Source: Escherichia coli | Lineage (GTDB): Bacteria > Pseudomonadota > Gammaproteobacteria > Enterobacterales > Enterobacteriaceae | Reading direction: 5' to 3' (one strand) | NCBI RefSeq assembly: GCF_016026235.1 | Contig: NZ_CP065613.1 | DNA: 64,000 nt | Part shown: in pieces, positions 5,371 through 25,991 of the stretch | Numbering within the stretch: position 1 is the stretch's first letter | Layout of the letters: the number at the start of each line of letters is the position of its first letter | Translations under genes and position numbers: made by a program | Notes under the pieces: generated by a model | Told to the model about the DNA's origin: nothing | Database searches by the model: none | What the model saw: the letters and a program-made list of their open reading frames with translations, nothing else

Positions 5371-5406
5371 AACGGGCATGGTGTCACCACCCTGCCCGTT
5401 TCTCTT
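5371..5406. terminator. Bidirectional rho-independent terminator between hisI and wzzB
   Basis: Stem cgggca (5373-5378) / tgcccg (5393-5398), preceded by an A-run and followed by ttctctt; sits between convergent genes. Confidence 0.7.
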
Positions 5407-5421
5407 AAATGCACAATAATA

Positions 5422-6402: not shown

Positions 6403-6548
6403 CATTACCCTAACGGACGAAATAATTTTAAGTCGCCATAGTTTAGCGATAATCGCCATAAATGCTATAGGATAAATGATAAAAACAATGAATTATCACA
6501 AAGAAAACAAAAGACAATCAGGGCAAAAATCGCCCTGATTACAAGATG

Positions 6549-6656
<108 letters not shown>

Positions 6657-6827
6657 CTAATAGTCAATTTAGAACAGCTTTGATTGTAAAACGAGCACGT
6701 TACCAGAAAAAACAGCTAAGTTTAGAACTGATACCGATTATCTTTTTTTCTTGTCTAACGGTATGATTTAACTTTCAGTTATGCCAGATGAAGATTGGCT
6801 ATATTCTAGCCTGAGCGAGGATTATAA

Positions 6828-7832: not shown

Positions 7833-7848
7833 TTTTACAAAACCATAA

Positions 7849-7880
7849 GAAAAGGCCCTAATTTATTAGGGCCTTTTCTT
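7849..7880. terminator. Bidirectional terminator between convergent gla and ugd
   Basis: Perfect hairpin aaaaggccctaa / ttagggcctttt with A-run on one side and T-run on the other. Confidence 0.75.
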
Positions 7881-7897
7881 AGAATGAAACAAAATAA

Positions 7898-9064
7898 TTA
7901 ATCATTGCCAAACAAGTCGCGAGTATAAACTTTATCTGCTACATCAGCCAGATCGGCAGACATACGGTTAGAAATAATAACATCAGCTTCTTGTTTGAAT
8001 GCATCCAAATCACGTACCACGCGCGACCGGAAAAAATCGTCCTCTTTCATCGCTGGCTCATAAACGATTACAGGAACGCCTTTCGCCTTGATTCGCTTCA
8101 TAATACCCTGAATCGAGGAAGCACGAAAATTGTCTGAACCACTCTTCATAATCAAACGATAGACGCCAACAACTTTCGGTTTACGTGCAAGGATAGAATC
8201 GGCAATAAAGTCTTTTCGCGTGCGGTTGGCATCAACAATTGCCGAAATCAGATTATTCGGCACAGATTGATAGTTTGCCAGTAACTGCTTGGTATCTTTC
8301 GGCAGACAATAACCTCCATAACCAAATGACGGATTGTTGTAGTGATTACCGATACGCGGATCAAAGCAAACCCCCTCAATAATCTGGCGGGAATTAAGCC
8401 CCAGACTTTCAGCATAACTATCTAGTTCATTGAAATAAGCTACACGCATCGCCAGATAGGTGTTGGCAAAAAGTTTAATCGCCTCAGCTTCCGTTGAGTC
8501 AGTAAACAACGTTGGAATATCTTGCTTAATAGCACCTTCTTGTAATAATGCTGCAAAACGTTCAGCGCGTTCAGACTGCTCACCAATCACAATGCGTGAT
8601 GGATGCAAGTTATCATAAAGTGCTTTCCCTTCGCGTAAAAACTCCGGCGAAAAGATCACATTTTCAATACCAAATCGTTCTTTAATGGACTCTGTAAAAC
8701 CAACAGGGATAGTTGATTTTATAATCATTACAGCGTTGGGATTAATTTCTGTCACATCACGGATGACCGCTTCCACGCTTGAGGTATTAAAATAATTTGT
8801 TTTTGGGTCATAATCGGTAGGCGTGGCAATAATAACGTAATCGGCATTTTTATACGCGTCATACTTATCTGTCGTAGCGCGGAAATTGAGCTCTTTAGTC
8901 GCCAGATACTCTTCAATCTCCTTATCAACAATCGGTGACAGCTTCTTGTTAAGCATGTCCACTTTGGCCTGAACGATATCCAATGCCACCACTTCGTGAT
9001 TTTGCGCAATCAGAATACCATTTGAAAGACCAACATAACCTGTACCTGAAATTGTTATTTTCAT
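7898..9064 (-). CDS. ugd: UDP-glucose 6-dehydrogenase
   Basis: ORF 7898-9091; start placed at [16 protein letters not shown] (NAD-binding GxGxxG); 388 aa from that start. Confidence 0.93.
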
Positions 9065-9267
9065 TAGCTCTGACTTCTTCCGATTAAACATTTAGAGTGG
9101 TCATTAATCCACCACCATAACTTCATCTACTGCGGGATTTTTAACGCTGATGTAGATGAACAGTCAAGGCAGCGATCCTGCTGTGCGGCTCTGTATTATA
9201 TCTCTTTTTTAACCCAAAATTATAAAAAAAGTCCATAACCTGCCGCTTTGTATAATAAAAAAGCCCG

Positions 9268-9279
9268 GAGGATTTCTCC
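9268..9279. repeat. Target-site duplication (left) of the IS element: GAGGATTTCTCC
   Basis: Identical 12-mer directly abuts both ends of the element (also at 10572-10583). Confidence 0.75.
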
Positions 9280-10571
9280 TGAGGGATCCCCAGAAAATTT
9301 AGTAAACCATTATCATATTGGTATACCGTTGCTGTAGAACTTTCAGCCCTGCGTCAAGTGACAGTGTGTTTAGTATGAGTGGAGAATGTCGAATCACATT
9401 CTCCGCCAGTTTTAATAACGAGATGACTCGCCTGTGCTTCACTGTATTTGCCTGATATTTATGATGTATCCCTTTGTTTTCCAGGCTGAAACCGCTTAAC
9501 CACATAATGATACTGGCTAATGTTGCGATCAGACTCAATACCGTGACCCGCCCGGATGAATGACTGGCACCAAACCGTAGTCCAAATCCCCAGCGAGGAT
9601 TTTTTTCATCCCTGAAATTTTGCTCAATTTGCATTCTACGGCTGTATAATTTCATTACCTGTTTTGGCGAGAACTCAGTACTGTTTGTGAAAATAAACCA
9701 TGGTGATTTCCCGGCAGTACGAGCTTTAGCCGTCACCGATGGTCTGGTTGCTCTTTCCTTCGAGCGTTTAAATCTACGACCTTTAGGCTTACTTTTATAA
9801 AGATAAAAATGCCCTTCATGTTGTGCATTTTTATCTCGACCCAGCAGGCCTTCACCTAAATAAATTGCTGTCGTTGATGCTTTTGTGCCTGAGTCCGACA
9901 CCTTTTCCCAGCCATTACCAACATTGTAATAATGATTGCCCAGTACCCGGCAAATATAGGTCCAGCCACGGGAGCGGAGCTGTTGGAACCATCGCCCCTG
10001 AAAACCGGCATCTGTAATAACAATGACATCAGTCCCGGGGGAAAAGCACTCAGCAAGCGATTCCAGAAAACGCTCATGTACATCTGCATTCGCTGTCTGT
10101 GATGATGGAACGACACAACTCATCAACGGTAAAGAACGCCCGTCACATGCCAGGCTTGCCCGCAAAAGCTGAAAACGAGAGGCATGATAAGCACTCCAGT
10201 CAATGAGTATCACAACACGAGACATTCCCCGCGTAATCTTTTGGGTAATTCGCTGAAAAATGGTGGAAACCTCATTTTGCAAATGTCGATTCCCCAACAG
10301 TCGATCCACCCGCTTTATTTTGTTTTTAACTGATGCCGTACCGGTTAAATGACGCCCGATACTGGTAAGTGTGAGGGAAGCGCCATTTATTACAGCATTA
10401 GTTGCGTCAATCAGTGATTTTTGACGGTAAAGATGCAAAGGGGCCAGTATATTGTTAAGGAAATTTTGGCATAATGAACGTGCAGGCATAGTGGTGATCT
10501 CCTTGAAATTGTTAGCACAATCAATTAGATCACATCTCACTATGCCTGTCTTGTTTTCTGGGGATTCCTCA
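9280..10571 (-). mobile_element. IS4-family (IS10-like) insertion sequence, about 1.29 kb, apparently intact
   Basis: Terminal inverted repeats TGAGGGATCCCCAGAAAA (9280-9297) and TGAGGAATCCCCAGAAAA (reverse complement of 10554-10571), 17/18 match; single transposase ORF; flanked by 12-bp direct repeats. Confidence 0.85.
9299..10489 (-). CDS. DDE transposase, IS4 family (IS10-like)
   Basis: ORF 9299-10594 extends beyond the IS end, so start placed at internal MPARSL (10489) preceded by AAGGAG; motifs KIKRVDRLLGNRHL, ITDAGF, YSRRMQIEQNFRDEK, HKYQANTVKHRRV parallel the IS10 transposase as recalled. Confidence 0.85.
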   Translation of the reverse strand: MPARSLCQNFLNNILAPLHLYRQKSLIDATNAVINGASLTLTSIGRHLTGTASVKNKIKRVDRLLGNRHLQNEVSTIFQRITQKITRGMSRVVILIDWSAYHASRFQLLRASLACDGRSLPLMSCVVPSSQTANADVHERFLESLAECFSPGTDVIVITDAGFQGRWFQQLRSRGWTYICRVLGNHYYNVGNGWEKVSDSGTKASTTAIYLGEGLLGRDKNAQHEGHFYLYKSKPKGRRFKRSKERATRPSVTAKARTAGKSPWFIFTNSTEFSPKQVMKLYSRRMQIEQNFRDEKNPRWGFGLRFGASHSSGRVTVLSLIATLASIIMWLSGFSLENKGIHHKYQANTVKHRRVISLLKLAENVIRHSPLILNTLSLDAGLKVLQQRYTNMIMVY

Positions 10572-10583
10572 GAGGATTTCTCC
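10572..10583. repeat. Target-site duplication (right) of the IS element: GAGGATTTCTCC
   Basis: Identical to 9268-9279. Confidence 0.75.
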
Positions 10584-10616
10584 GGGGTTTGCATTGATTA
10601 GTTGATTTAAATCAGA

Positions 10617-12023
10617 TTAATCCAGCCATTCGGTATGGAACACACCTTCTTTATCAATGCGCTTATAAGTATGTGCACCGAAATAGTCACGCTGTGCCTG
10701 GATCAGGTTCGCAGGAAGAACAGCGGCGCGGTAGCTGTCATAATAGGCAACCGCAGCGGCGAAGGTCGGAACCGGGATACCGTTCTGTACCGCATAAGCG
10801 ACGACATCGCGCAGCGCCTGCTGGTAGTCATCGGCAATTTGCTTGAAATACGGAGCCAGCAGCAGGTTAGCGATCTGCGGATTTTCGGCATAAGCATCGG
10901 TGATTTTCTGCAGGAACTGCGCACGGATAATGCAGCCAGCACGGAAAATCTTCGCGATTTCGCCATAGTTCAGATCCCAGTTGTACTCTTCAGACGCAGC
11001 ACGCAACTGAGAGAAGCCCTGGGCGTAAGAAACGATTTTGCCCAGATACAGAGCACGACGAACTTTTTCGATGAACTCAGCCTTGTCGCCTGCTGGCTGC
11101 GCTTGCGGACCAGACAGTACTTTGGACGCGGCAACACGCTGCTCTTTCAGAGAAGAGATGTATCGTGCAAACACAGACTCGGTAATGAGCGACAGCGGTT
11201 CACCGAGATCTAGCGCGCTTTGGCTGGTCCATTTACCGGTACCTTTGTTAGCCGCTTCATCCAGAATCACATCAACCAGGTAGTTACCGTCTTCATCTTT
11301 TTTAGTGAAGATGTCTTTGGTGATGTCGATCAGGTAGCTGCTTAGTTCACCATTATTCCACTCGGTAAAGGTCTGCGCCAGTTCATCGTTGGTGAGGTTC
11401 AGGCCACCTTTAAGCAGAGAATAGGCTTCAGCAATCAGCTGCATATCTCCGTATTCAATACCGTTGTGAACCATCTTCACATAGTGACCTGCGCCATCGG
11501 CACCAATATAGGTAACACATGGCTCCCCATCTTCAGCCACTGCGGCGATTTTGGTCAGGATCGGTGCGACCAGTTCATAGGCTTCTTTCTGGCCACCAGG
11601 CATGATGGAAGGTCCTTTCAGCGCACCTTCTTCGCCACCAGAAACACCGCTACCGATAAAGTTAAAGCCTTCTGCAGACAGCTCACGGTTACGACGAATG
11701 GTGTCCAGGAAGAAAGTGTTACCACCATCAATGATGATGTCACCTTTATCGAGGTATGGCTTGAGAGAATCAATAGCAGCATCCGTGCCTGCACCTGCTT
11801 TCACCATTAACAGGATGCGACGAGGCGTTTCCAGAGATTCAACAAACTCTTTTATTGTATAGTAAGGAAATAACTTCTTATCCGAATGAGTAGCTATAAT
11901 TTTTTCTGTTTTTTCACGAGAACGGTTAAAAATTGAAACAGTATAGCCGTGACTTTCGATATTTAGTGCAAGATTACGCCCCATTACCGCCATACCGATA
12001 ACCCCAATCTGTTTTTTTGACAT
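10617..12023 (-). CDS. gnd: 6-phosphogluconate dehydrogenase (decarboxylating)
   Basis: ORF 10617-12029; start placed at [21 protein letters not shown]; ends ...GVFHTEWLD. Confidence 0.95.
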
Positions 12024-12874
12024 TTTCACTCCTATTTAATTAGCAGAATAATAAACGTATTGAAACACATATAAAAATATGTCATATGGAAAATATTGCA
12101 TTAAGACAAACAACAGATAATTGTATATGTAATTAAACTTATATTAAATTAATTACAGAAAATACTCAAAACTAACGTTGCTCTCCACACTCTAGTTTCC
12201 AGTGTCTCAGACTAACTATTATTAATAGTCTCCGCGATATATAAGAGATTTAACTGCCATGCCTCAAATATATCTTTCAACTCACTTACATTTTATAAAT
12301 TACAATAATCGAGAGTCAAATTATCAACCTCAAAATAATTTTGACAAACAACGAGGCTGTTGGTGTTTCCAGAATACTCAAATTGGTTCTATTCGTCATA
12401 TGTACTAAAACCTTAAAGCCAATGAAATATATCTTATCACAGTCATCTAATAACCATATGATAGCCACCAATGAATTTAGAAAAAATAAAACTTAAGACT
12501 GTTCCTGACTCTGAAATTTTATACAGCACAAATAATGCAATGAACTATTCTATACTTTTAAGTAAAATAAAGACAATCTTTATCATAATACTAAGTTCAT
12601 TCGCACCAATTAACCTCAGAATTCATTTCAATGATAACTAAAGGCTTTATAAAAATAATTCTTCAGGAGAGGCACTTGGTAAACATAATTTTACTAAATA
12701 GATTGCAGATTATAATCTGATACAAAAACATTAATCACACTTCTTGTCCACACAGACCCACATTTCCCTATTCTATTGAAATTCACTTAAAACTCATCCA
12801 TGACATCATCAAATATAAAAATACATTTGCAAATCAAAAGCATTATCCAATATTTCTTTATAAGATTTGCCGAA

Positions 12875-13678
12875 TTATCTCCAAGAGGCAAAGTGGCGCT
12901 TAAAAAACAAACACAGCGGATTTATATGATGTTTGGCAACAGCATTAACAGCATAGTGGGAGAAATAATAAAGAGATTTAAACAGACCAAACTTTAAATA
13001 TTTCCTGTAAAAGGCCCATTGTGAAAATATTATTTTTAATTTATTTGACGAGAGTGTATCGGTGCCTACTCGATAATAGGCCAGTGTTTCGTTCAAACAA
13101 TATGCATAATCAATTTTATCTAAAATGCTCAGCCATAGTGCCATGTCCTGTCTTTTCCTGATTGTTGGCATAAACATTTTACCAAGAGATGAAGTATCAT
13201 ATACAGCTGTCAAGCAACCTATTACATTAGTCTTTAATAATTCAGAATAATTAACTTTAGAAACAGGATTAATTTGGGATAAAAGTTTCCCGCTAAAACT
13301 AACCTTTTGATATGAGGTATAAGTGAAAGCATAATTATTTGAAAGCATAAAGTCTATCTGTTTTTTTATTTTCTCTTTATGCCAAAAATCATCACTATCT
13401 AAAAAAGCGATAAACCGACCTTTAGCTTTACTGATCGCTATATTTCTTGACATACCAGCCCCATAATTCTTCTCATTTGAAATGAGAACAACTCTTGAAT
13501 CTTTTTTTTGATATTCCCTGCAAATAGACACTGTATTATCTGACGAACAATCATCGACAATAATCATTTCTATATTATTATATGATTGAGATAGAACAGA
13601 ATCAATTGTACATCTAATCGTTCTTTCAGAATTATATGTGGGTGTTATGACTGAAACTAAATATTTATCGGTACTCAT
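12875..13678 (-). CDS. Glycosyltransferase, family 2 (last gene of O-antigen cluster)
   Basis: 267 aa; ITPTYNSERTI ... VDDCSSD ... FLDSDD motifs typical of GT-A fold GT2 enzymes; AT-rich. Confidence 0.8.
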   Translation of the reverse strand: MSTDKYLVSVITPTYNSERTIRCTIDSVLSQSYNNIEMIIVDDCSSDNTVSICREYQKKDSRVVLISNEKNYGAGMSRNIAISKAKGRFIAFLDSDDFWHKEKIKKQIDFMLSNNYAFTYTSYQKVSFSGKLLSQINPVSKVNYSELLKTNVIGCLTAVYDTSSLGKMFMPTIRKRQDMALWLSILDKIDYAYCLNETLAYYRVGTDTLSSNKLKIIFSQWAFYRKYLKFGLFKSLYYFSHYAVNAVAKHHINPLCLFFKRHFASWR

Positions 13679-13837
13679 AGAATCATCTCAAACTTACATA
13701 AGTTTCATTATATAATGTCATGTTTATCATATCCATCCTTGGTAGCTTATTAAGAAATTTCACATATTAAATATTTATCAAGTATTTCATTAACATCCCA
13801 CCTTAATATAAAAAGCCGTTAATTAAGAGAGTAACTA

Positions 13838-13937
13838 CAAAGCAAAGCAAAGCAAAGCAAAGCAAAGCAAAGCAAAGCAAAGCAAAGCAAAGCAAAGCAA
13901 AGCAAAGCAAAGCAAAGCAAAGCAAAGCAAAGCAAAG
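13838..13937. repeat. Pentanucleotide microsatellite (GCAAA)x20 on + strand, (TTTGC)x20 in the operon direction
   Basis: Perfect tandem array visible at 13838-13937, between gne (ends 13989) and the GT2 gene (starts 13678). Confidence 0.95.
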
Positions 13938-13988
13938 ATGGTTTTATAAAAATATTGACAGTGAATAAAATAGCACATTAAAATCGTC

Positions 13989-15002
13989 TTATTTATATCC
14001 TTTGGGATTGTTTTTTTGCCAACGCCAAGAATCAATTATCATTGTATCTAAATCATATCGAGAAGACCACCCTAATTCTAAAAATGCTAGAGATGGATCA
14101 GACCAACATTCAGCTATATCACCAACTCGACGAGGTTTGAAACAATAAGGGATATCAATTCCAGTACAACGTTTAAAGGTATTTATCACATCAAGAACTG
14201 AATAACCAACCCCTGTACCAAGATTATATACTTTATAATTTCCCCCAAAATTACGGTGTTCTAAAGCAGCTATGTGCCCTTCAGCCAAATCCATAACATG
14301 AATATAATCTCTAATGCCTGTTCCATCAGGTGTAGGATAATCATTTCCGAATACTGATAAATATTTTAGATTACCAATAGCCACTTGAGTAATATAAGGA
14401 ATTAAATTATTTGGAACACCATTAGGATCTTCGCCTAATAGACCAGAAGAGTGGGCTCCTACAGGATTGAAATAACGCAAAATAGTAATACGCATTGTTG
14501 GCTCAGCCAAAGCTATATCCTTCAAAACCCTCTCTACTATAAGTTTTGAAAAGCCATATGGATTAGTTGTTCCGCCAACGCTACTATCTTCCTTCAAAGG
14601 AATAGTTTCAGGCTTACCATACACTGTTGCGGAGGAGCTAAAAATAAAACTAATAACGCCAGCGCGCATCATTTCTTCAAGTAAAACAATAGTTCCGTTA
14701 ACATTGTGATCATAATATTCCAATGGATTTGAAACAGATTCAGCGACGGCTTTTAATCCTGCAAAATGAATAACATCTGTAATATCATGATACTGGAAAA
14801 TATGTTTGAGTTTTTTCCTATCACGCACATCACCATGATAAAATAGAGGCCTACGTCCACAAATTTTTTCGACCCTTTCTAACGACTTAGACGATGAGTT
14901 CGATAGATTATCCAACACCACCACATTTTTTCCGTATGATAATAAGGATAATACAGTATGTGAACCAATGTAACCTGCACCACCAGTAACCAAAATAGTC
15001 AT
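13989..15002 (-). CDS. gne: UDP-hexose 4-epimerase, GalE family (probably UDP-GlcNAc 4-epimerase Gne)
   Basis: 337 aa; LVTGGAGYIGSH ... HFAGLKAVAESV ... YxxxK context; GalE-family SDR inside an O-antigen cluster. Substrate (UDP-Glc versus UDP-GlcNAc) cannot be decided from sequence by eye. Confidence 0.8.
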   Translation of the reverse strand: MTILVTGGAGYIGSHTVLSLLSYGKNVVVLDNLSNSSSKSLERVEKICGRRPLFYHGDVRDRKKLKHIFQYHDITDVIHFAGLKAVAESVSNPLEYYDHNVNGTIVLLEEMMRAGVISFIFSSSATVYGKPETIPLKEDSSVGGTTNPYGFSKLIVERVLKDIALAEPTMRITILRYFNPVGAHSSGLLGEDPNGVPNNLIPYITQVAIGNLKYLSVFGNDYPTPDGTGIRDYIHVMDLAEGHIAALEHRNFGGNYKVYNLGTGVGYSVLDVINTFKRCTGIDIPYCFKPRRVGDIAECWSDPSLAFLELGWSSRYDLDTMIIDSWRWQKNNPKGYK

Positions 15003-15348
15003 AAAACTCCTTATATTTCATCTATCTGCCTAGGATATAAAACAAGAATATAAACACATTATAAATAGTATAAACTGTGAAAGAATAAAAATTTAGAATA
15101 GTTAAGCCCAATGTTACTATAAAAATACAATATGCAAGTATACGTTATTTTTCTAAACATCTCGACATATTGTATGAGTCTAACACTATATTGCATTTTT
15201 TTCGTGTAAATTATGTTCTAGTGGTGTCAGTAATTCGAGCAATTTATGAGGCCTTTTATTCTTGTACAGTATGCAATATTGAGCCTGTTTATGATTGACA
15301 TATTCAGATTTTCAAAGAGCAATTCTTCATTAAACTCAATAAACGGCT

Positions 15349-15634
15349 ATCTCAGTGATCGGTTAAAGCGCTCACAGATGGTGTTCATTTTCGGCGTATC
15401 GAGATAAGCCTATTGGTGCCTGATAGCGGCTTCCTGTAGCTTTTTGTCAAATTTTCCCAGGAACTCTTCCCCATAATCGGGTATATTCTGGTTGATTCCA
15501 ACAGGTAACAACCGAGCTTGATGGCAGAAGAAACTCATGATTACATCACTGTTAAGCGACGTTACCGCCACCGCCAAAGCGTAGTTGCTGCGTTCGTCAA
15601 TCACGGTAATAACATAACGCCGATTCTGAGCTCA
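15349..15634 (-). pseudogene. Remnant of an rve-type (integrase-core DDE) transposase gene, frameshifted and truncated
   Basis: Minus-strand frames give ...RRYVITVIDERSNYALAVAV... (VIDxxSR-like first catalytic-D region) and, in another frame, ...PKMNTICERFNRSLR* (xERFNRxL C-terminal integrase-core motif); local G+C looks higher than the surrounding cluster. Confidence 0.45.
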
Positions 15635-15944
15635 ATATAAGCTCACCGGTCTTTAGCGGGCTAATAGTACCTTGGACTTGAAGTCTGGGAACCCAGTTAC
15701 ACCAGTATTAGCCACATTTTATCATGTGCTGCCTAGCTCATTCCTCCAATAGTGGAGACGCTCGGGCAGGCCAAATGCTACTGTTCACACTACAGATTCA
15801 GACGGTCAAAAATCTGTTCTTTTCCAAGGTTGAGAAGTCCTATTCTAATTCATCATATTTCTTTCAAAATTTCTGGATGTCATAGTTTTGTAAGACATAC
15901 TAGAAAGATTTACTACTTGAGATAAGCACTTCCGAGCCTATATA

Positions 15945-16307
15945 TTAAACGCGTATTGATACACAAAAATTTTCTGCGGATGCATTGATTCCATGTCTTT
16001 CCCTAAAATGCAGGGTTTTCATTCTTAATTTTGCAATATCAGGCATGGCATTGTATTCCATCGCATAGATTGTTGCACGGTAATGCCCGAAACACCTGAC
16101 GCCGATATGTTGGTTCAACATAACAATCTCTCCTTTCTTATCTGGAGACAATTGCAACATCTCTGAAAACTTACACTCTGCCCATCGTGTACATAACCAA
16201 AGACAACAGAAATATGTCACGCCTTTTTCCAAATTCCAATTTATATTCCTTACTCTTATAACACAAGGAGTATCTGAATATATAAGAGTGAAGGAGTGCT
16301 TTGGCAA
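15945..16307 (-). CDS. Hypothetical protein or gene fragment of unknown function
   Basis: 120-aa ORF in the decayed segment between gne and wzy; no recognisable motifs; may be a remnant. Confidence 0.25.
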   Translation of the reverse strand: MPKHSFTLIYSDTPCVIRVRNINWNLEKGVTYFCCLWLCTRWAECKFSEMLQLSPDKKGEIVMLNQHIGVRCFGHYRATIYAMEYNAMPDIAKLRMKTLHFRERHGINASAENFCVSIRV

Positions 16308-16752
16308 AAATATTTAATTCAAAGATATAAAACACAATCGATTTAGTATCAAAAGATTACTCAGTAATCTTTCACCAAATAAATTAGTTCAAAATAACAC
16401 TACAGCAATGGCAATAAAACCATTCCATGAAATAGCAACATAAACACGCAAATAGAATTTCCACGTAAATTTATAACACTTACCAATCCAAAACATTATT
16501 TATTATAGATTGTATTCATGGGATTATCACCTGGTTCAGTTATAGATTTGTGATCTATGTAGTTCACTATTCTTACAGTTCTCAAAAAACTTAAATTAAA
16601 TTGTTGCGCTATTACCCTATAGTCTTTAAATACCCATAAAAACAAAGGCAAAAACCAATTTGTTTTACAGATATCTAGAATAAGATAATATGTCAACAAT
16701 TAACAAGTTACTACTATTGTTTGTTAATAAAAACCTGCAATTAAAATAATAA

Positions 16753-18015
16753 TCATGCATTAACCGAACCCCTTCTTATTAATCTTTTTTTATGACAAAT
16801 ATAAAAAGATGAAAATATATATATATATATTATTTTCATATATGCAACATTCAAAAATATAACCTCGCCTTTATAATGAAAAGAAAAACTGAGTATCGTA
16901 ATCATTAATACAACTATTTTAGGTTTGATGCTATTAGCAGCATAAATAGTCAAAAAAATAAAAAATAAAAAATAAAAAATAACCGATGGTACCGCACCCA
17001 AAAATAATGCTAACCGCATAAATCCAGCATCGGTCCCGAGATAATATGTCCCATCCTTTAACGTATAGTACCCATCACCAATGAAGATCTGTTTTTCTGT
17101 TAACGGAAAATACATATTAAATAATGCATCTGTAGATGTTGTTGATAACTTTCCTGAATCTAAATAATAATATAACATTTGAAAAGAATAATCCGAATAT
17201 TTTTTCAAGATATCATAAACATGTTCATTTAAAAAAAATCTCCAAAAAATAAATAAAAACAGAGATACATAAATCAAAATTTGAAGCGCCCGATAAAACT
17301 TCTTTTTATAATCAGAGCAAATAAAACTATATACCCCTCCGAGGACAAACCCCAAAACAGCCGTACGCCCAGCAGAAATTGACGCGAACAGCAAGAGTAT
17401 GATAAAAAATAATTTAAAAAAGAAAGGAATATTACAGTCTTCCTCATTAAACCAAACAATTGAAAGAAAAGATAATAATGACATAATTATAGCAAGACCA
17501 AAGGCAACAGAACCTGATATACCTAATCCCCTGATGCCTCCATATGTATTACTCATAAATTCTATTTCTTCTTTTGTTCTAATAATACTTTGAATATAAG
17601 CATTTATACTGGGAAAAAACATCATCAGAATAATAAAAAAGGATTGTAAGAGGGCAATTAGAAAAAACAATTTCAACACATTATCATTGTTATGCTGGAT
17701 TAAGTGCGACGCAATTATAACAGAGCTGAATAATGCAGCGAAATTATTAAAGATAACCCCCATGATAGATAAATCTCCTGTACCATTTAATACCAATGAA
17801 ATACAAGAAAAAAAGAGCATGCAGGCCAAAGACAAAAACGCAATAAAAAATATTCTTGTACTTATTAGACTAAAAAAAACAGTCCTTATCCTGATATTTG
17901 TAATTAAATAAATCAAGGAGAAAATATATATAAGATAGCCTGAATTAAAAAAAACAGGGATGCTAAAAGCAAACACAAATAAAAACAACAAAAATACATC
18001 AAAAAAAACCTTCAT
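16753..18015 (-). CDS. wzy: O-antigen polymerase
   Basis: 420 aa, highly hydrophobic multi-TM protein with a larger hydrophilic loop, adjacent to glycosyltransferases and wzx; identity as Wzy is by elimination (the other polytopic protein has the Wzx pattern). Confidence 0.7.
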   Translation of the reverse strand: MKVFFDVFLLFLFVFAFSIPVFFNSGYLIYIFSLIYLITNIRIRTVFFSLISTRIFFIAFLSLACMLFFSCISLVLNGTGDLSIMGVIFNNFAALFSSVIIASHLIQHNNDNVLKLFFLIALLQSFFIILMMFFPSINAYIQSIIRTKEEIEFMSNTYGGIRGLGISGSVAFGLAIIMSLLSFLSIVWFNEEDCNIPFFFKLFFIILLLFASISAGRTAVLGFVLGGVYSFICSDYKKKFYRALQILIYVSLFLFIFWRFFLNEHVYDILKKYSDYSFQMLYYYLDSGKLSTTSTDALFNMYFPLTEKQIFIGDGYYTLKDGTYYLGTDAGFMRLALFLGAVPSVIFYFLFFIFLTIYAANSIKPKIVVLMITILSFSFHYKGEVIFLNVAYMKIIYIYIFSSFYICHKKRLIRRGSVNA

Positions 18016-19127
18016 AAAAATTCCTTTTGTGACACGACCCGATAATAAATATCAACCATACGCTTTGTGTTTTTATTTATATCAAACATTTTTATTATTG
18101 TATCTCGGTTATATTCAATCGAACACCTATATTGATTACTATCTATTAATTTCACACACCTTGAAAAAACAGATTTCATGTCAATATCATCATGCAGATT
18201 CAAATACATTGCATGATTTCCTAATAGCTCTCTGTTTGCATCGATGTCTGATACTATCGGAAAACAATTACATAAAACGCCCTCCATTAAAGATAATGGA
18301 GCACCATCATTGCTAGGAATACTAAGAACAAAATCAGATTTATGAAGAATCGACCTTAATTCCTCTTTTTGAATAAACCCTATTAAATTTACTTTATAAT
18401 TATCTCCCTCACATTTTTTTGTGAGTTCTATTATCTTATCATGTGTGGTCTTTGACGATGAGCGGCCTAGTATATTGATATTAAAAAAGTACCCTTTACA
18501 ATCATAATCTTTCATATCAATAACAGCTTCTAAAAAGGACTCTATGTTATAAATATTATCCCAATTTCTTACAGAAGTTATTGTTATACATTTATCGTCC
18601 CTTATGCTTGACGTTTTTTCATCTGAAAAGAACCCCACATCTACACCATATTGAAAAGTATGTATTCGCTCCTGATTCACATTGAAATACGATATTATTT
18701 TATTTGTTATATGCTTGGCGGGTGAATTTACAACACAAAAACTTTTCATTGCTTTTACATATATTTTTCCTAATATCCCTCTCTTTTTTATAGTATTGTT
18801 AATGTCACTTCCCCATACTGAGAGTATCTTCTTTACTTTTCTAGGCAAAACACATGAAATTAAACCATAAGAACTAAAAAAATGGACATGAACCAACTCA
18901 GGCTTTAATAAAAAAAAATAAAAAAGAAGAAAAACAGGTGCGTATATAAAATCAAATTTAGTTTTTGTAAGTCTTGGTATCTTATATATCTCTCCTATTC
19001 CAACATTCTCAGAAATACTTTTGTCATAGTGTAGTGTGACAATTCTATAATCAATATATTCTTTGGAACCATGAATCCAGTTACTAATATGACCAGATAT
19101 CATAGGGCCAAAAACAAGTACTCTCAT
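18012..19127 (-). CDS. Glycosyltransferase, GT-B fold (GT4 / family 1 type)
   Basis: 371 aa; C-terminal E-x7-E-like region ...LSLMEGVLCNCFPIVSD...; overlaps neighbours by 4 bp. Confidence 0.75.
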   Translation of the reverse strand: MRVLVFGPMISGHISNWIHGSKEYIDYRIVTLHYDKSISENVGIGEIYKIPRLTKTKFDFIYAPVFLLFYFFLLKPELVHVHFFSSYGLISCVLPRKVKKILSVWGSDINNTIKKRGILGKIYVKAMKSFCVVNSPAKHITNKIISYFNVNQERIHTFQYGVDVGFFSDEKTSSIRDDKCITITSVRNWDNIYNIESFLEAVIDMKDYDCKGYFFNINILGRSSSKTTHDKIIELTKKCEGDNYKVNLIGFIQKEELRSILHKSDFVLSIPSNDGAPLSLMEGVLCNCFPIVSDIDANRELLGNHAMYLNLHDDIDMKSVFSRCVKLIDSNQYRCSIEYNRDTIIKMFDINKNTKRMVDIYYRVVSQKEFL

Positions 19128-20017
19128 TTTTTCCCCATTCGTTTTCTTAAATTTAAATAATAATTTTTAGCATGGAGTGGAGACAACCACCCAATACATT
19201 TCCCCACAATATTGTGCTTGATTTTTATTGATTCAATGACAGAGAATAAAAAAAACTCAACTGAAAAGTTGGTTGCATTAAATAAATGAATAGGTGCAAC
19301 TTCATTTTTTCTGAAAAATTTAGATAAAATAGTCTTGTTTTTTATTTGGATAAACTTCTTACAACTGCCAATTGAGCCATGCCTTATCCTATAAAATAAA
19401 ACCACGTCATCTATATTCCTTACAATACATCCACTCAATACAGCCCTACACAAAAAATCATAATCTTGAGCAGCATCTAAACGCCTGTAACCACCTAATT
19501 TATAATAAAGCTCTGACCTTAACAACCAAGTTGGATGAATTATTTCATTCCCCCACGAAAAATCTACTGGGTTCATATTAAAATAATCCCTAACAACATT
19601 ATCGTTCTCATCAATAACAACAGCCTGTCCACCGACTAAACTGACATCAGAATGCTTATTCAGATATTCTAATTGCTTTTTAAAACGCCCGTTAATAACA
19701 ATATCATCAGCATCCATTCTGGCAATAAAATCATAGCCATTACACGCGCCAAAAATTAATTTATTTAAACTTGCCGCCAACCCTTCGTTCTCATTAAAAA
19801 AAACAACGCACACATCATTTCTGGCACTAACTTCTTTTAAATATAAACTCTCAACATGAGGAATATCTTCATTTCTCCTATCGACTCCAATTATTAATTT
19901 ATATTTCACATTCTTCTTTTCCAATCTTTCCAGATCCTGAAGAGTACTGTCTACTGCCTTTTTTAGTATTATGTAACTCTCATTATAGTAAGTCATGATT
20001 ACAGCAAGTTTTTGCAT
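19124..20017 (-). CDS. Glycosyltransferase, family 2
   Basis: ORF 19124-20143; start placed at internal MQKLAVIMTYYNE (typical GT2 N-terminus); DAD/DxD-like motif RMDADD. Confidence 0.75.
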   Translation of the reverse strand: MQKLAVIMTYYNESYIILKKAVDSTLQDLERLEKKNVKYKLIIGVDRRNEDIPHVESLYLKEVSARNDVCVVFFNENEGLAASLNKLIFGACNGYDFIARMDADDIVINGRFKKQLEYLNKHSDVSLVGGQAVVIDENDNVVRDYFNMNPVDFSWGNEIIHPTWLLRSELYYKLGGYRRLDAAQDYDFLCRAVLSGCIVRNIDDVVLFYRIRHGSIGSCKKFIQIKNKTILSKFFRKNEVAPIHLFNATNFSVEFFLFSVIESIKIKHNIVGKCIGWLSPLHAKNYYLNLRKRMGKK

Positions 20018-21204
20018 TTCAAATCCCACAGACAACAAATTGTAATAATAATTGGCGATAGAACTACAGCATATACTATATAATAATATGGGAATAATGA
20101 AGAAAATAAAAAAATAGATATTAACGATAATACATTCGAACAAATCACATATTTTACTATATTTTTTGATGAGTGTATCATATGAATTAATTGAGTTAAA
20201 TATTGATTGAGTATACTTGGGATAACAGCTAGGCTAAATGAAAATATTAGAAAAATAAAAAAACGAGATATTTCTCCCTTTGTCAAATAAATAGAGATAT
20301 ATGATATTGCAGCCACACATATAAAAACAACGATGCTGTAAAACAACAATTTGAGTAGCTGACTTCTGTATTTTACTTCCACATAGTTAGTTTTGTGCCC
20401 TACGGAATAAAAAACCTCTGAATTACATTTATTTAAGACAGTGATAATTGAATTGGAAAATGTTACGGATACTGTCACAAATCGCATAACGACGTTATAT
20501 ATCCCTAACAAGCTAGCATTTCCTGATGCCAATATAGCAGAATTAATTATAGGCTGAATAAGTGCATTTACCCCGCTATATATGTACATATGCTTAATGT
20601 TTTTCAAATAATTTTTAATGTGTCTAAATGATATTTTTCCCAACCTATTATCATTCTTTATTTTTATCAAACTAATAAGTCCAACCAGAGCAGATGCTAT
20701 CGCCTGAATAAAAATAAACATGTGTAATTCAAAAGCATAATATAAAACAAATAAAACCGCTAAAATTTTAACTACCAAGGACACTATTATTATAAACCTA
20801 AAGTTATCCTTTGCTATATAGTACCAACTATTAAGCATGCCAAATCCAAACGAGAATATTACGACACAAAAATAATCACTCTTCCCTGCAGTCTCTGAAA
20901 TTATAATAAACACCATCGCACATACAAAAAAAAACACTAACTTAAAGAAAATCGCTGAAATAACAAACGACTGCTGAGCAATTTCATTACCCTTAAGCTT
21001 ATTTAATTGTTGTACGCCTACTGTATTTAGACAAGCATCATAAATAAATGAAATAAAAGTTGATATAGTTAACACATACGAATAAACTCCATATCCCTCT
21101 AAATTAAATCTAGTTAAAACCAGCGGCATAATTATTATTGGGACAATATAATCCACTAGCTTTAGAGCACTTACAGAGATAATACTTCTTAAAAAACTAG
21201 ACAT
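19999..21204 (-). CDS. wzx: O-antigen flippase
   Basis: 401 aa, about 12 predicted TM segments, polysaccharide-transporter-family N-terminus. Confidence 0.75.
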   Translation of the reverse strand: MSSFLRSIISVSALKLVDYIVPIIIMPLVLTRFNLEGYGVYSYVLTISTFISFIYDACLNTVGVQQLNKLKGNEIAQQSFVISAIFFKLVFFFVCAMVFIIISETAGKSDYFCVVIFSFGFGMLNSWYYIAKDNFRFIIIVSLVVKILAVLFVLYYAFELHMFIFIQAIASALVGLISLIKIKNDNRLGKISFRHIKNYLKNIKHMYIYSGVNALIQPIINSAILASGNASLLGIYNVVMRFVTVSVTFSNSIITVLNKCNSEVFYSVGHKTNYVEVKYRSQLLKLLFYSIVVFICVAAISYISIYLTKGEISRFFIFLIFSFSLAVIPSILNQYLTQLIHMIHSSKNIVKYVICSNVLSLISIFLFSSLFPYYYIVYAVVLSPIIITICCLWDLKCKNLL

Positions 21205-21643
21205 CTTTTATTTTTCTAGCCGGTTGCCCAACATATACACCTGGTTCCTCTAAGTTTTTTGTAACTATCGCTCCGGCACCAACAATAATATTACTACAGA
21301 TCTCCACTCCCGGTAAAACAATTGCTCCAGCACCTAACTGAACATTATCTTTTATTACTACCTTATCTTTTTTATATTTAAAGATTTTCTTTTCAAATAC
21401 CAAACCTGTACTGAGAATTTTACTACCAGCAGACAGTACTACATTATGGCCTAAAATGACTCCTCCACTAGCATTTATATACACAAAATCATTAATTGAA
21501 AAGGAATTACCGAATTTAAGATTCGATGGTTCTACTATCTTATAAGGACCATAAATATGGGATTGCTTATAACGTTTTACTCCAAACTCACAGATAAAAC
21601 ATAATTTATACCATATTAATTGAATTCTAGAGAATATGCTCAT
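21197..21643 (-). CDS. Hexapeptide-repeat O-acetyltransferase
   Basis: 148 aa; left-handed beta-helix hexapeptide repeats (GHNVVLSAGSKI... GAGAIVLPGVEI... GAGAIVTKNL). Confidence 0.8.
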   Translation of the reverse strand: MSIFSRIQLIWYKLCFICEFGVKRYKQSHIYGPYKIVEPSNLKFGNSFSINDFVYINASGGVILGHNVVLSAGSKILSTGLVFEKKIFKYKKDKVVIKDNVQLGAGAIVLPGVEICSNIIVGAGAIVTKNLEEPGVYVGQPARKIKDV

Positions 21644-22557
21644 AGCTTTAACTCCTTTCCGAGCCTTTCATCCCATTCAAATGGAGTTATCTTATCATAC
21701 CCCGATCCTTGATGAAATGTTAATTCGCCTACATATATTTTTTCTTGAACAAGATATAAATCAACCCTAAGATATTTGAAACCTTGACTTAGTTTTTTAG
21801 ATATATTTAGAGCGTTTTCTAACTGACTTGGTTTACTAATATTCTTCACATTAAATTTTGAAAGATCTTTTCCCCTTCTCGCCCAGCAAAAATCTAACAT
21901 ATTCCAACTAGTATCATATATAGAACGATAATTCCCTCCCTCACGATCTAACGACACATAAATAAATTTCGGTTCTCCATTAAAACAATGAATTTTTATA
22001 TCATTAGGAACTTTCCCTGCCTCATCCTCTAATAACCTTTCAACAATTATACGCCTATCAATATTTTTATATTGCCATTCTCTTCCGTGATGGTAAATAT
22101 TACAATTAAGTGTTCTAATAAATTTCCACTTAACCTCATCAATATTCAATAAATTCTTGTCTCTAACAATAAAATAATCGCCACAATAGTGGTTCGATTT
22201 TATAACAAACTTACCCTGTGGTAAAGACTCAAAGGTAATATCAAAAGGGGTATCATAAACCTTTAACAAATCAATTATATTATCTCTCGTTCCCAGCCTA
22301 TTTTCCACATATTCTCGCACTCTAATTTTATCAGCACATATTGTATGTAATAGTGTTCTGTCATTTAGTTTCAACCATTGTAACTTTTGATTTAATGTCT
22401 TCGGATTGTTCAATCCGAGAGGGTATCCCTGATATTCAAGAAACTGCTTTTTTATAATCAAGCTATCTGGAGTAATCAGAACGACAAAGCATTTCAATAA
22501 ATACTTTATATTATACAATATATACATCAATTTCATGGAAAGATTTTTTCTATTCAT
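21640..22557 (-). CDS. TupA-like ATP-grasp protein (predicted amide ligase acting on a sugar carboxylate)
   Basis: 305 aa; NPKTLNQKLQWLKL motif and overall layout recalled as characteristic of the TupA-like ATP-grasp family. Confidence 0.65.
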   Translation of the reverse strand: MNRKNLSMKLMYILYNIKYLLKCFVVLITPDSLIIKKQFLEYQGYPLGLNNPKTLNQKLQWLKLNDRTLLHTICADKIRVREYVENRLGTRDNIIDLLKVYDTPFDITFESLPQGKFVIKSNHYCGDYFIVRDKNLLNIDEVKWKFIRTLNCNIYHHGREWQYKNIDRRIIVERLLEDEAGKVPNDIKIHCFNGEPKFIYVSLDREGGNYRSIYDTSWNMLDFCWARRGKDLSKFNVKNISKPSQLENALNISKKLSQGFKYLRVDLYLVQEKIYVGELTFHQGSGYDKITPFEWDERLGKELKL

Positions 22558-23237
22558 ATTAGAATCTCAAATAATTTATGCTGTCTTACCCATTCTCTTG
22601 CCTGACCTTTCGATACTACTACCCCAACGTTGCTCATTTTTAATATTGGTAAATCGCTAATAGAATCAGAGTAAGTTGTTATATGATACTCAGAAACATC
22701 TAACGACAAAACACCTTTTAACATTAATACTTTATTATATCCCATGCAATTCTTGCCACTAATTCTCCCTAAACACCTGCCTCTATTATCAAATTTAATT
22801 TTTGTGCATACAAAGCCATTAATCTCTAATGCTTTAACTAAATATTGAATATAAATATCATAGCCTCCAGAAATAATAATAACCTCATCTCCATCTTTTA
22901 AATGCTTATTCAATATCTTAATTATGGCAGGATTAATTCTGCGCAATATAATTTCATTAACGTAATCACGAGCCATTACATTAAGAATATCCCTTTCAAT
23001 ATTTTTTAACATATACAATAAAATTCTTTTCCTTAAGCTTTCCCCCAATCTTATTTTATTTATTATTTGTTCGATTTTGAAAATGGATAATGAAGATGCC
23101 ACCCTATTTAAAGTCTGTATTTTGATGTTATTACATATCCCCAAACGATCTATTACATAGTATATAAACCCATCGCCAGTTTGAAAATCAACTAAGGTTT
23201 CACACAGATCAAATAATGCTATCTTTTTTAACTTCAT
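22554..23237 (-). CDS. HAD-superfamily phosphatase (subfamily IB-like)
   Basis: 227 aa; N-terminal motif I variant FDLCETL, ISGG, C-terminal YSDSISDLP acidic motif. Confidence 0.7.
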   Translation of the reverse strand: MKLKKIALFDLCETLVDFQTGDGFIYYVIDRLGICNNIKIQTLNRVASSLSIFKIEQIINKIRLGESLRKRILLYMLKNIERDILNVMARDYVNEIILRRINPAIIKILNKHLKDGDEVIIISGGYDIYIQYLVKALEINGFVCTKIKFDNRGRCLGRISGKNCMGYNKVLMLKGVLSLDVSEYHITTYSDSISDLPILKMSNVGVVVSKGQAREWVRQHKLFEILI

Positions 23238-24315
23238 ACATCTGCTCTAAAATTCTGATTACATACAACATTTGTTTTTTCGTTCCAATAGTAATTCTGA
23301 CACATAACTCGACCTCTTTCATATGAGATAAATCACGAACAAATATTAAATTAGATTTTAAACGTTCAATGAATGCTTTTTTATCATTCATCGATTTAAA
23401 CTCAATAACCAAAAAGTTCCCCTCTCCATATACAATATTTTTTTGACCTATATTTATATTTTTCAACTTATCATAAAAAAAACGCTTAGCCTGATTAACT
23501 TCCTTAACATAATTATTCATATATTCAACTTCGTCTAATGCATTCAAAGCGGCAATCTGACTTAGCTGAGGTATATTTTTTGCATTTCTGACTTTATTTA
23601 TTGCACCTAACAAATCTTGTGACGCTATTATATATCCCATTCGCATCCCTGCCAATGAAAATGCTTTGGAAAATGTTCGCGTAATAATTATGTTATTAAA
23701 GGAGTTTACAAAATCAGCACACGTTAATTTTGCAAATTCATAATAGGCTTCATCGATAATAAAATATATTCCTTTATATTTTTCTACAAGATAATGTATA
23801 TCTCCTTTAGGAATAAGAGTACCTGTAGGATTATTTGGGTTACATAAATAGGCCATTTGAGGTTGAAACTTATTGAGATCGCTTTCAAACTTCTTTAATG
23901 ACCAATAGTAATTATCTTCAAAAATTGAATAACAAATTGTTGCCCCTTGAGCTTCACCTGTTGTTCTGAAATTATCATACGTAGGTGCTAACATCAATAT
24001 TTTATCATTTTCATTAATTAATGTACGAATGATAGACTCGTGTGCTGAGTCTGAACTACAAAAATATTGGATATATTCCTTTGGCACCCCCACATAGTTT
24101 GATATCTTTATTATTAAATCTTTATTGCTCACATCTGGATAATACCTAATTAGATTATTTACCAACGAATTCATTAATGCATTTTTTACTCTTTCTGGCG
24201 GTTCAATAGTAGATTCGTTCCAATCTAATTTTAATATTGTTTCTTTATTTTCACTCTCCCATATAGCGTGGGATGCAAGTTTATATGGTTTCATTTTTTT
24301 TACGAACTTATTCAA
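23209..24315 (-). CDS. HisC-family PLP-dependent enzyme (aminotransferase or decarboxylase acting on a phosphorylated substrate); first gene of the O-antigen operon
   Basis: 368 aa; motif-for-motif parallel with the hisC in this window (CNPNNPTG vs CSPNNPTG; IDEAYYEF vs ADEAYIEF; TRTFSKAFSLAGMRMGY vs [16 protein letters not shown]; VRITIGT vs LRITVGT) but highly diverged and AT-rich. Confidence 0.8.
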   Translation of the reverse strand: MNKFVKKMKPYKLASHAIWESENKETILKLDWNESTIEPPERVKNALMNSLVNNLIRYYPDVSNKDLIIKISNYVGVPKEYIQYFCSSDSAHESIIRTLINENDKILMLAPTYDNFRTTGEAQGATICYSIFEDNYYWSLKKFESDLNKFQPQMAYLCNPNNPTGTLIPKGDIHYLVEKYKGIYFIIDEAYYEFAKLTCADFVNSFNNIIITRTFSKAFSLAGMRMGYIIASQDLLGAINKVRNAKNIPQLSQIAALNALDEVEYMNNYVKEVNQAKRFFYDKLKNINIGQKNIVYGEGNFLVIEFKSMNDKKAFIERLKSNLIFVRDLSHMKEVELCVRITIGTKKQMLYVIRILEQMYEVKKDSII

Positions 24316-24800
24316 TTTTTACTCCATTACGTTCTGTGCATAACATTTAAAGAATTTAAACATGCTCAAGAAAACACAATATCTTATCTTAGATAATTTT
24401 CAGAATTGCTCCTATGTTTCATAATTCGTATATAAGCCCATACATTTATTTTATTCTTAATATAATCTCGTGAAGAATAATCGACATATTGTGTCAAAAA
24501 AAATATATATCTATTCCACATACTGAATATCTTCACTAACTTCTGCAAATTGAGAGCATAAGTAATCAGACACAGAATATTCAATATATTATACTTTCCA
24601 TGCTTGTCTGTAGTCAGAAATATAGAGACACCTTATTAAATCTTTAAGTTTTATCTTACTCTTTTTGTATATATACTGAGTATTTGGACATTTATAATAT
24701 ATAAAATAATAGCGTTTGATGTTAAGGAAAATCTCCATTATTGAATATTTATCGCCAATTGTTTAGTAAAAAATCAGTGCCACATGTTTTCTCTTATATG

Positions 24801-24839
24801 CACGCTACCGCCCCTGGCTTTACAGCTACCAGAGCACTG
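24801..24839 (-). promoter_or_regulatory. 39-bp JUMPStart element with ops (GGCGGTAGCGTG) antitermination site upstream of the O-antigen operon
   Basis: + strand reads cacgctaccgcccctggctttacagctaccagagcactg, the reverse complement of the JUMPStart consensus as recalled; ops 12-mer at 24801-24812. Confidence 0.85.
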
Positions 24840-25097
24840 CATGCATGCCTACGATGTGACGAGCGTTACCCACTCGCGCTAAACCCGAAAAATTCAAACG
24901 CTAATTGTCTTACCAATCCGCTCTGGAAACAAGGAAAATCCTGGAAAACTTTGACGAAAATCCTATTGCTAACTCTTTGTTATTCTGATTGTTTATATAA
25001 AACAACGGCAGGAATATTCGCAACAAATTACCTTCGCCGCAAATCTTCACAGCCGTTATAATTTTCTTATCAACCGTTACATCCGGTCAGATTTTCA

Positions 25098-25991
25098 TTA
25101 TTCGCTTAACAGCTTCTCAATACCTTTACGGAACTTCGCCCCTTCTTTTAGGTTACGCAGTCCATACTTCACAAACGCCTGCATATAGCCCATTTTTTTA
25201 CCGCAGTCGTAGCTGTGACCTGTCATCAGCATGGCATCAACGGACTGTTTTTTCGCCAATTCGGCAATGGCATCAGTCAGCTGAATACGCCCCCATGCAC
25301 CTGGCTGAGTGCGTTCAAGTTCCGGCCAAATATCGGCAGAAAGCACATAGCGACCAACGGCCATGATGTCTGAGTCCAGCGTCTGCGGCTGATCCGGTTT
25401 TTCGATAAATTCGCCGATGCGGCTGACTTTACCTTCACGATCCAGTGGTTCTTTGGTCTGAATGACGGAGTATTCAGAGAGGTCACCCGGCATACGTTTT
25501 GCCAGCACCTGGCTGCGGCCCGTTTCGTTGAAGCGCGCAATCATGGCAGCAAGGTTGTAGCGTAGCGGATCGGCGCTGGCGTCATCGATAACAACGTCTG
25601 GCAGTACCACGACAAATGGATTGTCACCAATGGCAGGTCGTGCACATAAAATGGAGTGGCCCAAACCTAAAGGTTCGCCCTGACGCACGTTCATAATAGT
25701 CACGCCCGGCGGGCAAATGGACTGTACTTCCGCCAGCAGTTGACGCTTCACGCGCTGCTCAAGGAGAGATTCTAATTCATAAGAGGTGTCGAAGTGGTTT
25801 TCGACCGCGTTCTTGGACGCGTGAGTTACCAGGAGGATTTCTTTGATCCCTGCAGCCACAATCTCGTCAACAATGTACTGAATCATTGGCTTATCGACGA
25901 TCGGTAGCATCTCTTTGGGAATCGCCTTAGTGGCAGGCAACATATGCATCCCAAGACCCGCTACAGGAATAACTGCTTTTAAATTCGTCAT
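25098..25991 (-). CDS. galF: UTP-glucose-1-phosphate uridylyltransferase paralogue (regulatory subunit)
   Basis: ORF 25098-26003; start placed at [30 protein letters not shown]. Confidence 0.93.

Follow-up and report, generated by a model that had tools for sequence, protein, structure and literature searches.

The AT-rich block between galF and gnd in a 64,000-nucleotide stretch of Escherichia coli DNA (contig NZ_CP065613.1; this whole stretch is referred to here as the window) is the O143 O-antigen gene cluster, which comprises positions 12875-24315 together with the leader that precedes them. The locus has already been described and is not new. What the cluster is, which genes it contains and which proteins their products resemble was observed directly. 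When these are taken jointly with the assembly of the O-unit and the decoration of its galacturonic acid (GalA) residue, as proposed below, it is very likely that the locus is correctly understood as the cluster of E. coli O143 and Shigella boydii type 8. O143 is a classical serogroup of enteroinvasive E. coli, and its antigen is common to a Shigella serotype (PMC8767346, PMC5723341). The locus is relevant to in-silico serotyping, yet it is already present in the reference sets.

The galF-gnd interval (12030-25097) was compared by megablast with 5,426 complete E. coli genomes. Its full 13.07 kb was matched at 99.5-99.6% identity and 100% coverage in four of them, and in all four the wzx and wzy genes are annotated as 'O143 family O-antigen flippase/polymerase'. 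The window differs from these four RefSeq O143 genomes by 36-40 single-nucleotide polymorphisms (SNPs), the indels are intergenic only, and the genes follow one another in the same order. The match of the window to an E. coli NCTC contig (UGFA01000005.1) had 0 mismatches over 17.2 kb, repeat number aside, and included the insertion sequence (IS) element ISEc60. In an exact-sequence look-up, eight of the window proteins were identical to public-database sequences, including Wzx, WfdQ, WfdS, WfdU, WfdV and Gne. The exact UniProt entries are B5L388_ECOLX for WfdQ, B5L390 for WfdS, B5L393 for WfdU, B5L395 for Gne and B5L396 for WfdV, while WfdR and WfdT are named members of the 90% clusters to which the window proteins belong. 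Because of the near-identical genome matches, the exact named proteins and the contig without mismatches, the cluster was identified as the known O143 cluster.

An earlier note on this DNA, made from the letters alone, had described the block as a non-K-12 serotype determinant with a distinctive gene content. The O143 identity bears out the first of these statements, and the second also holds, as the amine module described below was found by blastn in only 4 of the 5,426 complete genomes, namely the four O143 ones. The same rarity could be taken to favor a new, unassigned O-serogroup determinant. However, those four genomes are annotated as O143 and are 99.5-99.6% identical to the window over the full length, and the matches to the named WfdQ, WfdS, WfdU and WfdV and to the O143 Wzx are exact. 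On these grounds, and in view of the NCTC contig with 0 mismatches, a new serogroup was rejected and has a negligible probability. The novelty that the earlier note implied was thus lost once the block had been matched, almost identically and over its whole length, with a serogroup that is already characterised. The note had expected novelty to be removed by a match of this kind to a serogroup whose structure lacks uronic acid or amide substituents; the match was found, but both substituents are present in the structure.

The S. boydii genomes, whose contigs were fetched via Wzy, contain the same ten genes in the same order, together with the IS remnant and the microsatellite that are found in the window. 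In addition, the 90% clusters of the window proteins also contain S. boydii proteins (B5L37x/38x_SHIBO accessions). The window and S. boydii type 8 share approximately 99.2% DNA identity, with about 100 SNPs over 15.4 kb, and S. boydii does not have the ISEc60 element. The alleles of the window fit the E. coli lineage (0-3 mismatches) and not that of S. boydii (approximately 100 mismatches). In one S. boydii genome (CP026797, 4888-6892), wfdT was called as two open reading frames (ORFs) of 158 and 143 amino acids, and wzx encodes 376 amino acids compared to 401; either a true frameshift or a fault in the assembly may lie behind this.

The published repeat of the S. boydii O8 antigen is →3)-β-D-GlcpNAc-(1→2)-β-D-GalpA(3OAc,4OAc)6N-R-(1→3)-β-D-GalpNAc-(1→4)-β-D-GlcpA-(1→, in which R on the GalA amide is 2-aminopropane-1,3-diol (PMC10609480). 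The repeat consists of four sugars, namely N-acetylglucosamine (GlcNAc), GalA, N-acetylgalactosamine (GalNAc) and glucuronic acid (GlcA), of which two are uronic acids, and it carries O-acetyl groups and an amide. It accounts for every biosynthetic gene of the cluster. The O143 unit is initiated with GlcNAc, and the O143 cluster contains gne (PMC7685785). This agrees with the Wzx/Wzy-dependent unit of about four sugars, an initiating N-acetylhexosamine plus three, that had been predicted in the earlier note, as the S. boydii O8 unit is a tetrasaccharide and that of O143 starts with GlcNAc. The uronic acid, the O-acetyl group and the amide that had been predicted for the unit are likewise present, in the form of GlcA and a di-O-acetylated, amidated GalA. 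Three transferases are needed because one sugar initiates and three are transferred, and three are present.

The following scheme can be proposed for the assembly of the O-unit. In E. coli, wecA is located in the enterobacterial common antigen cluster, away from the galF-gnd region. WecA, encoded elsewhere, would transfer GlcNAc onto undecaprenyl phosphate as the first sugar, and WfdT, WfdU and WfdV would then carry out the addition of GlcA, GalNAc and GalA. Uridine diphosphate (UDP)-GalNAc would be supplied by the in-cluster Gne, and both UDP-GlcA and UDP-GalA by ugd and gla, which lie beyond gnd. WfdS is predicted to O-acetylate the terminal GalA after the amide has been formed. The complete unit would be flipped by Wzx and polymerised by Wzy, and the chain length would be governed by WzzB. 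What each enzyme does, the succession of the steps that lead to the amide and the pairing of transferases with linkages are inferred.

The amine module consists of three adjacent genes on the minus strand. The first encodes a pyridoxal phosphate-dependent aminotransferase (23209-24315), for which the name WfdP is used by inference and which matches NCBIfam hisC with 262 bits, just under the cut-off. The second encodes the HAD-IB phosphatase WfdQ (22554-23237; TIGR01490 and TIGR01488), identical to the entry 'WfdQ' mentioned above, and the third encodes the 305-amino-acid WfdR (21640-22557), a TupA-like ATP-grasp amidoligase (Pfam PF14305, E 2.6e-45) whose cluster includes 'WfdR' B5L379_SHIBO. 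Over its full length, the aminotransferase of the window shows 39% identity to Campylobacter jejuni Cj1437 (E 2e-83), but only 23% to the decarboxylase Cj1436 (E 7e-17). The corresponding values are 35% for WfdR and the C-terminal domain of Cj1438 (E 2e-46) and 24% for WfdQ and Cj1435 (E 7e-18). For these comparisons, the sequences of the Cj1438 C-terminal domain and Cj1435 were taken from the supplement of PMC11800397, and those of Cj1437 and Cj1436 from a C. jejuni contig that was reached by a homologue search with the Cj1438 C-terminal domain. This contig contains Cj1438, Cj1437, Cj1436 and Cj1435 in that order, and its Cj1435 shares 99% identity with the sequence as published, from which it differs at two positions. 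A sequence search of the PDB returned no solved relative of WfdR and one marginal match only for WfdQ.

The biochemistry of the C. jejuni pathway is known from the HS:2 capsule. Transamination of dihydroxyacetone phosphate by Cj1437 yields (S)-serinol phosphate. In an ATP-dependent reaction for which UDP-GlcA is not a substrate, this compound is coupled by the C-terminal ATP-grasp domain of Cj1438 to the carboxylate at C6 of an in-chain glucuronate, and Cj1435 strips the phosphate from the phosphorylated amide product (PMC11800397). By homology, WfdP, WfdQ and WfdR can be assigned to this serinol phosphate pathway. WfdP would form serinol phosphate from dihydroxyacetone phosphate by transamination, WfdR would use ATP to join it to the C6 carboxylate of a GalA that has already been transferred to the lipid-linked O-unit, and WfdQ would remove the phosphate to leave the 2-aminopropane-1,3-diol amide. 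The product in C. jejuni HS:2 is of the same kind as that of O143 and S. boydii type 8, in that a hexuronic acid is amidated with serinol, although HS:2 is an ABC-transporter capsule and O143 has a Wzx/Wzy-dependent O-unit. The two modules also differ in gene order, which is aminotransferase, phosphatase, ligase in O143 and ligase, aminotransferase, decarboxylase, phosphatase in C. jejuni. In contrast to C. jejuni, the O143 cluster has no Cj1436-type decarboxylase and hence no ethanolamine alternative. Because such a gene is absent and the aminotransferase shows only low identity to Cj1436, a serinol amide fits the cluster rather than an ethanolamine amide.

Two other ways of forming the amide were considered. 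In the first, amidation occurs on the nucleotide sugar, so that WfdP, WfdQ and WfdR make UDP-GalA 6-(serinol amide) and the residue is then transferred ready-made. A UDP-D-GalA6N pathway is listed in PMC7685785 among the routes proposed from gene content alone, and the free-standing form of WfdR, which is not tethered to a transferase domain, also speaks for this route. However, the Cj1438 C-terminal domain amidates the uronic acid only after its transfer to the chain (PMC11800397). Because this domain rejects UDP-GlcA, amidation after sugar transfer is favored, and by analogy the route through UDP-GalA is less likely; we regard it as improbable. In the second, WfdQ dephosphorylates free serinol phosphate before WfdR ligates the free serinol. 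A module that consists of an aminotransferase, a phosphatase and a ligase is most simply read in this way, and with an identity of only 24% to Cj1435 the substrate of WfdQ could differ. On the other hand, the C. jejuni ligase uses (S)-serinol phosphate, and Cj1435 acts on the phosphorylated amide (PMC11800397), which makes this order slightly less probable still. The preferred sequence of events is thus ligation of serinol phosphate to the transferred GalA followed by removal of the phosphate. The assignment of the three proteins by homology to a biochemically solved pathway, with its preference for amidation after transfer over amidation of UDP-GalA, is one of three modest additions that our analysis makes to the description of the cluster.

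Genes for the amine module are found together elsewhere. The three genes are adjacent in Gallaecimonas pentaromativorans and in the metagenome contig SRR13107671_4107. A metagenome contig (1454-5282) was also seen to encode two fusion proteins, one of GT2 with a TupA-like ATP-grasp domain (650 amino acids) and one of an aminotransferase with a HAD domain (627 amino acids), with radical-SAM and methyltransferase genes alongside. The three functions of the module are connected by these fusions.

Several points weigh against the account given above. The activities of the cluster enzymes are predicted by homology, and the HAD protein WfdQ is only 24% identical to its C. jejuni counterpart. The acceptor would be GalA here, whereas it is GlcA in C. 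jejuni, and WfdR is free-standing, whereas the Cj1438 ligase is fused to a GT2 domain. The latter is a difference in architecture and no argument against the chemistry. The pairing of O143 with S. boydii type 8 in particular is suggested by the shared proteins and by Liu et al. (2008), who reportedly made this pairing. The anomeric configurations are a further difficulty. GT2 enzymes are normally inverting and GT4 enzymes normally retaining, and the two GT2 and one GT4 transferases of the cluster predict two β linkages and one α linkage. The 1996 paper on the O143 structure is said to give one β linkage and two α linkages. In the repeat as printed in PMC10609480, all three of the linkages made by the transferases are β. 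The GT2 and GT4 fold types do not map cleanly onto either the printed configurations or those reported in 1996.

The number of glycosyltransferases is the last of these points. O143 is stated to have one glycosyltransferase above expectation in the 2019/2020 review of E. coli O-antigens in FEMS Microbiol Rev (PMC7685785), whereas three were counted here, and no fourth one was found in 12030-25097 with the ORF list and an NCBIfam scan. Several NCBI records give the name 'glycosyl transferase' to WfdR and to homologues of it from Campylobacter and Helicobacter. The surplus enzyme in the published count for O143 was thus probably WfdR, the ATP-grasp ligase, and these record names are the likely source of the discrepancy.

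The genes for the Wzx/Wzy pathway, that is the flippase, the polymerase and the chain-length regulator (wzx, wzy and wzzB), are all present. The O-unit flippase Wzx is encoded at 19999-21204 on the minus strand; it matches Pfam Polysacc_synt (E 1.7e-5), and a database entry of identical sequence bears the name 'O143 family O-antigen flippase'. The polymerase Wzy (16753-18015, minus strand; 420 amino acids) is a multi-span membrane protein with at least nine hydrophobic segments and no Pfam or NCBIfam match, but it is named 'O143 family O-antigen polymerase' in RefSeq and belongs to a 90% cluster of that name. The three glycosyltransferases are also encoded on the minus strand. WfdT (19124-20017) is a GT2 enzyme that matches an NCBIfam EpsE-like GT2 model and corresponds to 'WfdT' B5L392_ECOLX; its start is given as annotated (894 nt in RefSeq), while the mechanical ORF extends to 20143. 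WfdU (18012-19127), with the exact entry B5L393_ECOLX, shows weak GT4 matches, and its relatives match Pfam Glyco_trans_4_2 and Glycos_transf_1. WfdV (12875-13678), with the exact entry B5L396_ECOLX, is a TuaG-like GT2 enzyme that scored 293.6 bits against the NCBIfam TuaG model (cut-off 400). The hexapeptide-repeat O-acetyltransferase WfdS (21197-21643, minus strand; exact entry B5L390_ECOLX) matches the WcaF, NeuD and WbbJ families.

In each of the four complete O143 genomes, wzy carries the label 'frameshifted' in RefSeq (PGAP). The 420-amino-acid ORF is nevertheless uninterrupted, both in the window and in the RefSeq O143 genomes (at 10729-11991 in one of them). Because of this, wzy was rejected as a pseudogene, and the label is probably an annotation artefact that arises from the reference used for the O143 polymerase family. 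The label, together with the IS481-like remnant at 15003-16752, would otherwise have favored the view that the cluster is a decayed, non-functional copy in a rough strain. However, all ten ORFs in the window are intact, the four genomes differ from it by SNPs and, between genes only, by indels, and none of the O143 and S. boydii copies examined lacks the IS remnant. A decayed copy is therefore considered very unlikely.

The base composition sets the block apart from its surroundings. The computed G+C content of 12875-24315 is 0.313, and that of the whole gnd-galF interval (12030-25097) is 0.311, compared to 0.489 in the left flank (1-12029) and 0.522 in the right flank (25098-64000). Single genes in the block range from 0.28 to 0.36, while gnd has 0.485 and galF 0.509. 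In sliding windows, the G+C content was 0.28-0.37 from about 12000 to 24900 and 0.43-0.55 on either side. The impression that the cluster is far more AT-rich than its flanks, which had been gained by eye, was thus confirmed by the computed profile. All substantial ORFs of the block are on the minus strand. The gene list, which was obtained with NCBIfam and Pfam scans, matched the one proposed earlier (wzx, wzy, three glycosyltransferases, a GalE-family epimerase, an acetyltransferase and the amine module), and the same scans of the ORFs detected no rml, man, gmd/fcl, fnl or sialic-acid genes in the block, as had also been stated. The earlier layout was correct in gene content, but it did not mention the non-coding IS remnant at 15003-16752, the (CAAAG)20 repeat or the ISEc60 element between ugd and gnd.

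The locus is bounded upstream by galF (25098-25991, minus strand; TIGR01105, 683 bits) and downstream by gnd (10617-12023, minus strand), which was recognized from its ORF and translation and from the gndA annotation in the matching RefSeq genomes. Beyond gnd and outside the cluster, ugd (7898-9064, minus strand; NF011631, 798 bits) is adjacent to a gene on the plus strand (6828-7832) for a gla-like NAD-dependent epimerase, which resembles UDP-glucuronate 4-epimerase (Bacillus cereus entries 6zl6 and 6zla, E 1e-43). The adjacency of ugd and gla had been noted before and was found at these positions. The gene for the chain-length regulator, wzzB, is located at 5422-6399 (597 bits). The spacer between wfdV and gnd (12030-12874) is 845 nt long with 28% G+C and contains no convincing ORF; in the O143 genome of strain 200177, 214 nt of this spacer (12554-12767) are missing.

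The galF-proximal leader contains a JUMPstart element at 24801-24839 on the minus strand (Rfam RF01707, 60 bits against a gathering score of 35, E 5.5e-12), and the ops octamer GGCGGTAG is located within it at 24805-24812. Such a leader fits a single RfaH-dependent transcript that would run from galF towards gnd. A promoter and terminator scan returned 85 promoter-like sites compared to 78.7 expected. In the stretch from the first gene to galF, the four RefSeq O143 genomes differ from the window: each has 5 additional nt at about 24451, and three of them also have 1 additional nt at about 24495. These leader indels are located roughly 300-350 nt downstream of the JUMPstart element.

The GalE-family 4-epimerase encoded at 13989-15002 on the minus strand (TIGR01179, 443 bits) is the predicted Gne, which would convert UDP-GlcNAc to UDP-GalNAc. 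Its gatekeeper residue is a cysteine that aligns with C307 of human GALE and Y299 of E. coli GalE, and when the protein was compared with E. coli GalE structures, the entry for the Y299C mutant (1lrk) outscored the wild type. The Y299C exchange allows E. coli GalE to accept N-acetylated substrates. The gatekeeper cysteine would fit UDP-GlcNAc/UDP-GalNAc epimerase activity. Between wzy and the epimerase gene lies a decayed, non-coding IS481-like remnant of 1.75 kb (15003-16752, minus strand). It is annotated in RefSeq as 'integrase core domain-containing protein; frameshifted; internal stop' and is 76.9% identical to an IS481-family transposase of E2348/69.

A core of nine genes was found in the same order in two distant polysaccharide loci that are uncharacterised. 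The order is aminotransferase, HAD, ATP-grasp, acetyltransferase, wzx, GT2, GT4, wzy, GT2, and the amino-acid identity is 35-62% in Gallaecimonas pentaromativorans (LFWC01000017.1, 5784-14117) and 41-69% in the metagenome contig SRR13107671_4107 (8001-16359). The core is AT-rich in both, with a G+C content of 0.337 compared to 0.516 upstream in Gallaecimonas and 0.306 compared to 0.422 upstream in the metagenome contig. Unlike the O143 cluster, these loci are not located between galF and gnd, but beside wza/wzz-type export genes and a WecA-like gene. In both of them the last GT2 gene follows directly after wzy, and the IS remnant, gne and the microsatellite are absent, whereas in E. coli and S. 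boydii a segment of 3.07 kb (13679-16752) that holds all three separates wzy from the last GT2 gene. Because the distant syntenic loci do not contain this segment, the O143 cluster seems to derive from a core that was acquired laterally and received gne later, and the IS probably helped this insertion. The occurrence of the nine-gene core in a marine gammaproteobacterium, which points to such an acquisition, adds to what has been described for the cluster.

The 310-nt spacer between gne and wfdV contains a perfect (CAAAG)20 microsatellite at 13838-13937, which reads (CTTTG)n on the coding strand (TRF score 200, 100% matches). Among the 5,426 E. coli genomes, it was found only in the O143 cluster. 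The number of copies ranges from 9 to 58 across other O143 and S. boydii assemblies, in which the flanks are identical and the identity, repeat aside, is at least 99.2%. Complete or long-read genomes have 14, 19, 19, 21, 22, 25 and 58 copies, and the 20 copies of the window compare with 14, 19, 21 and 25 in the four RefSeq O143 genomes, 19 or 58 in S. boydii type 8, and 22 in a contig that is otherwise identical over 17 kb. Draft assemblies gave 9 and 11 copies, and three more draft contigs end inside the microsatellite, but short-read assemblies may collapse the repeat.

The microsatellite is located upstream of a -35/-10-like pair. It is conceivable that it acts as a contingency locus, whose length tunes the expression of the last glycosyltransferase gene, wfdV, and in this way the completeness of the O-antigen, but this is improbable. 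Repeat-driven switching is rare in E. coli. If the idea were true, the completeness of the O-antigen would vary in O143 enteroinvasive E. coli and in S. boydii type 8.

An intact ISEc60 (IS4 family, 360 bits) with an ORF of 431 amino acids (9299-10594) is located outside the cluster, between ugd and gnd, and the element spans about 9250-10610. At this position it is absent in the four RefSeq O143 genomes, from which the window is thereby distinguished, and in S. boydii, and it is present in the NCTC contig UGFA01000005.1. ISEc60 is multicopy in some enteroinvasive E. coli genomes.

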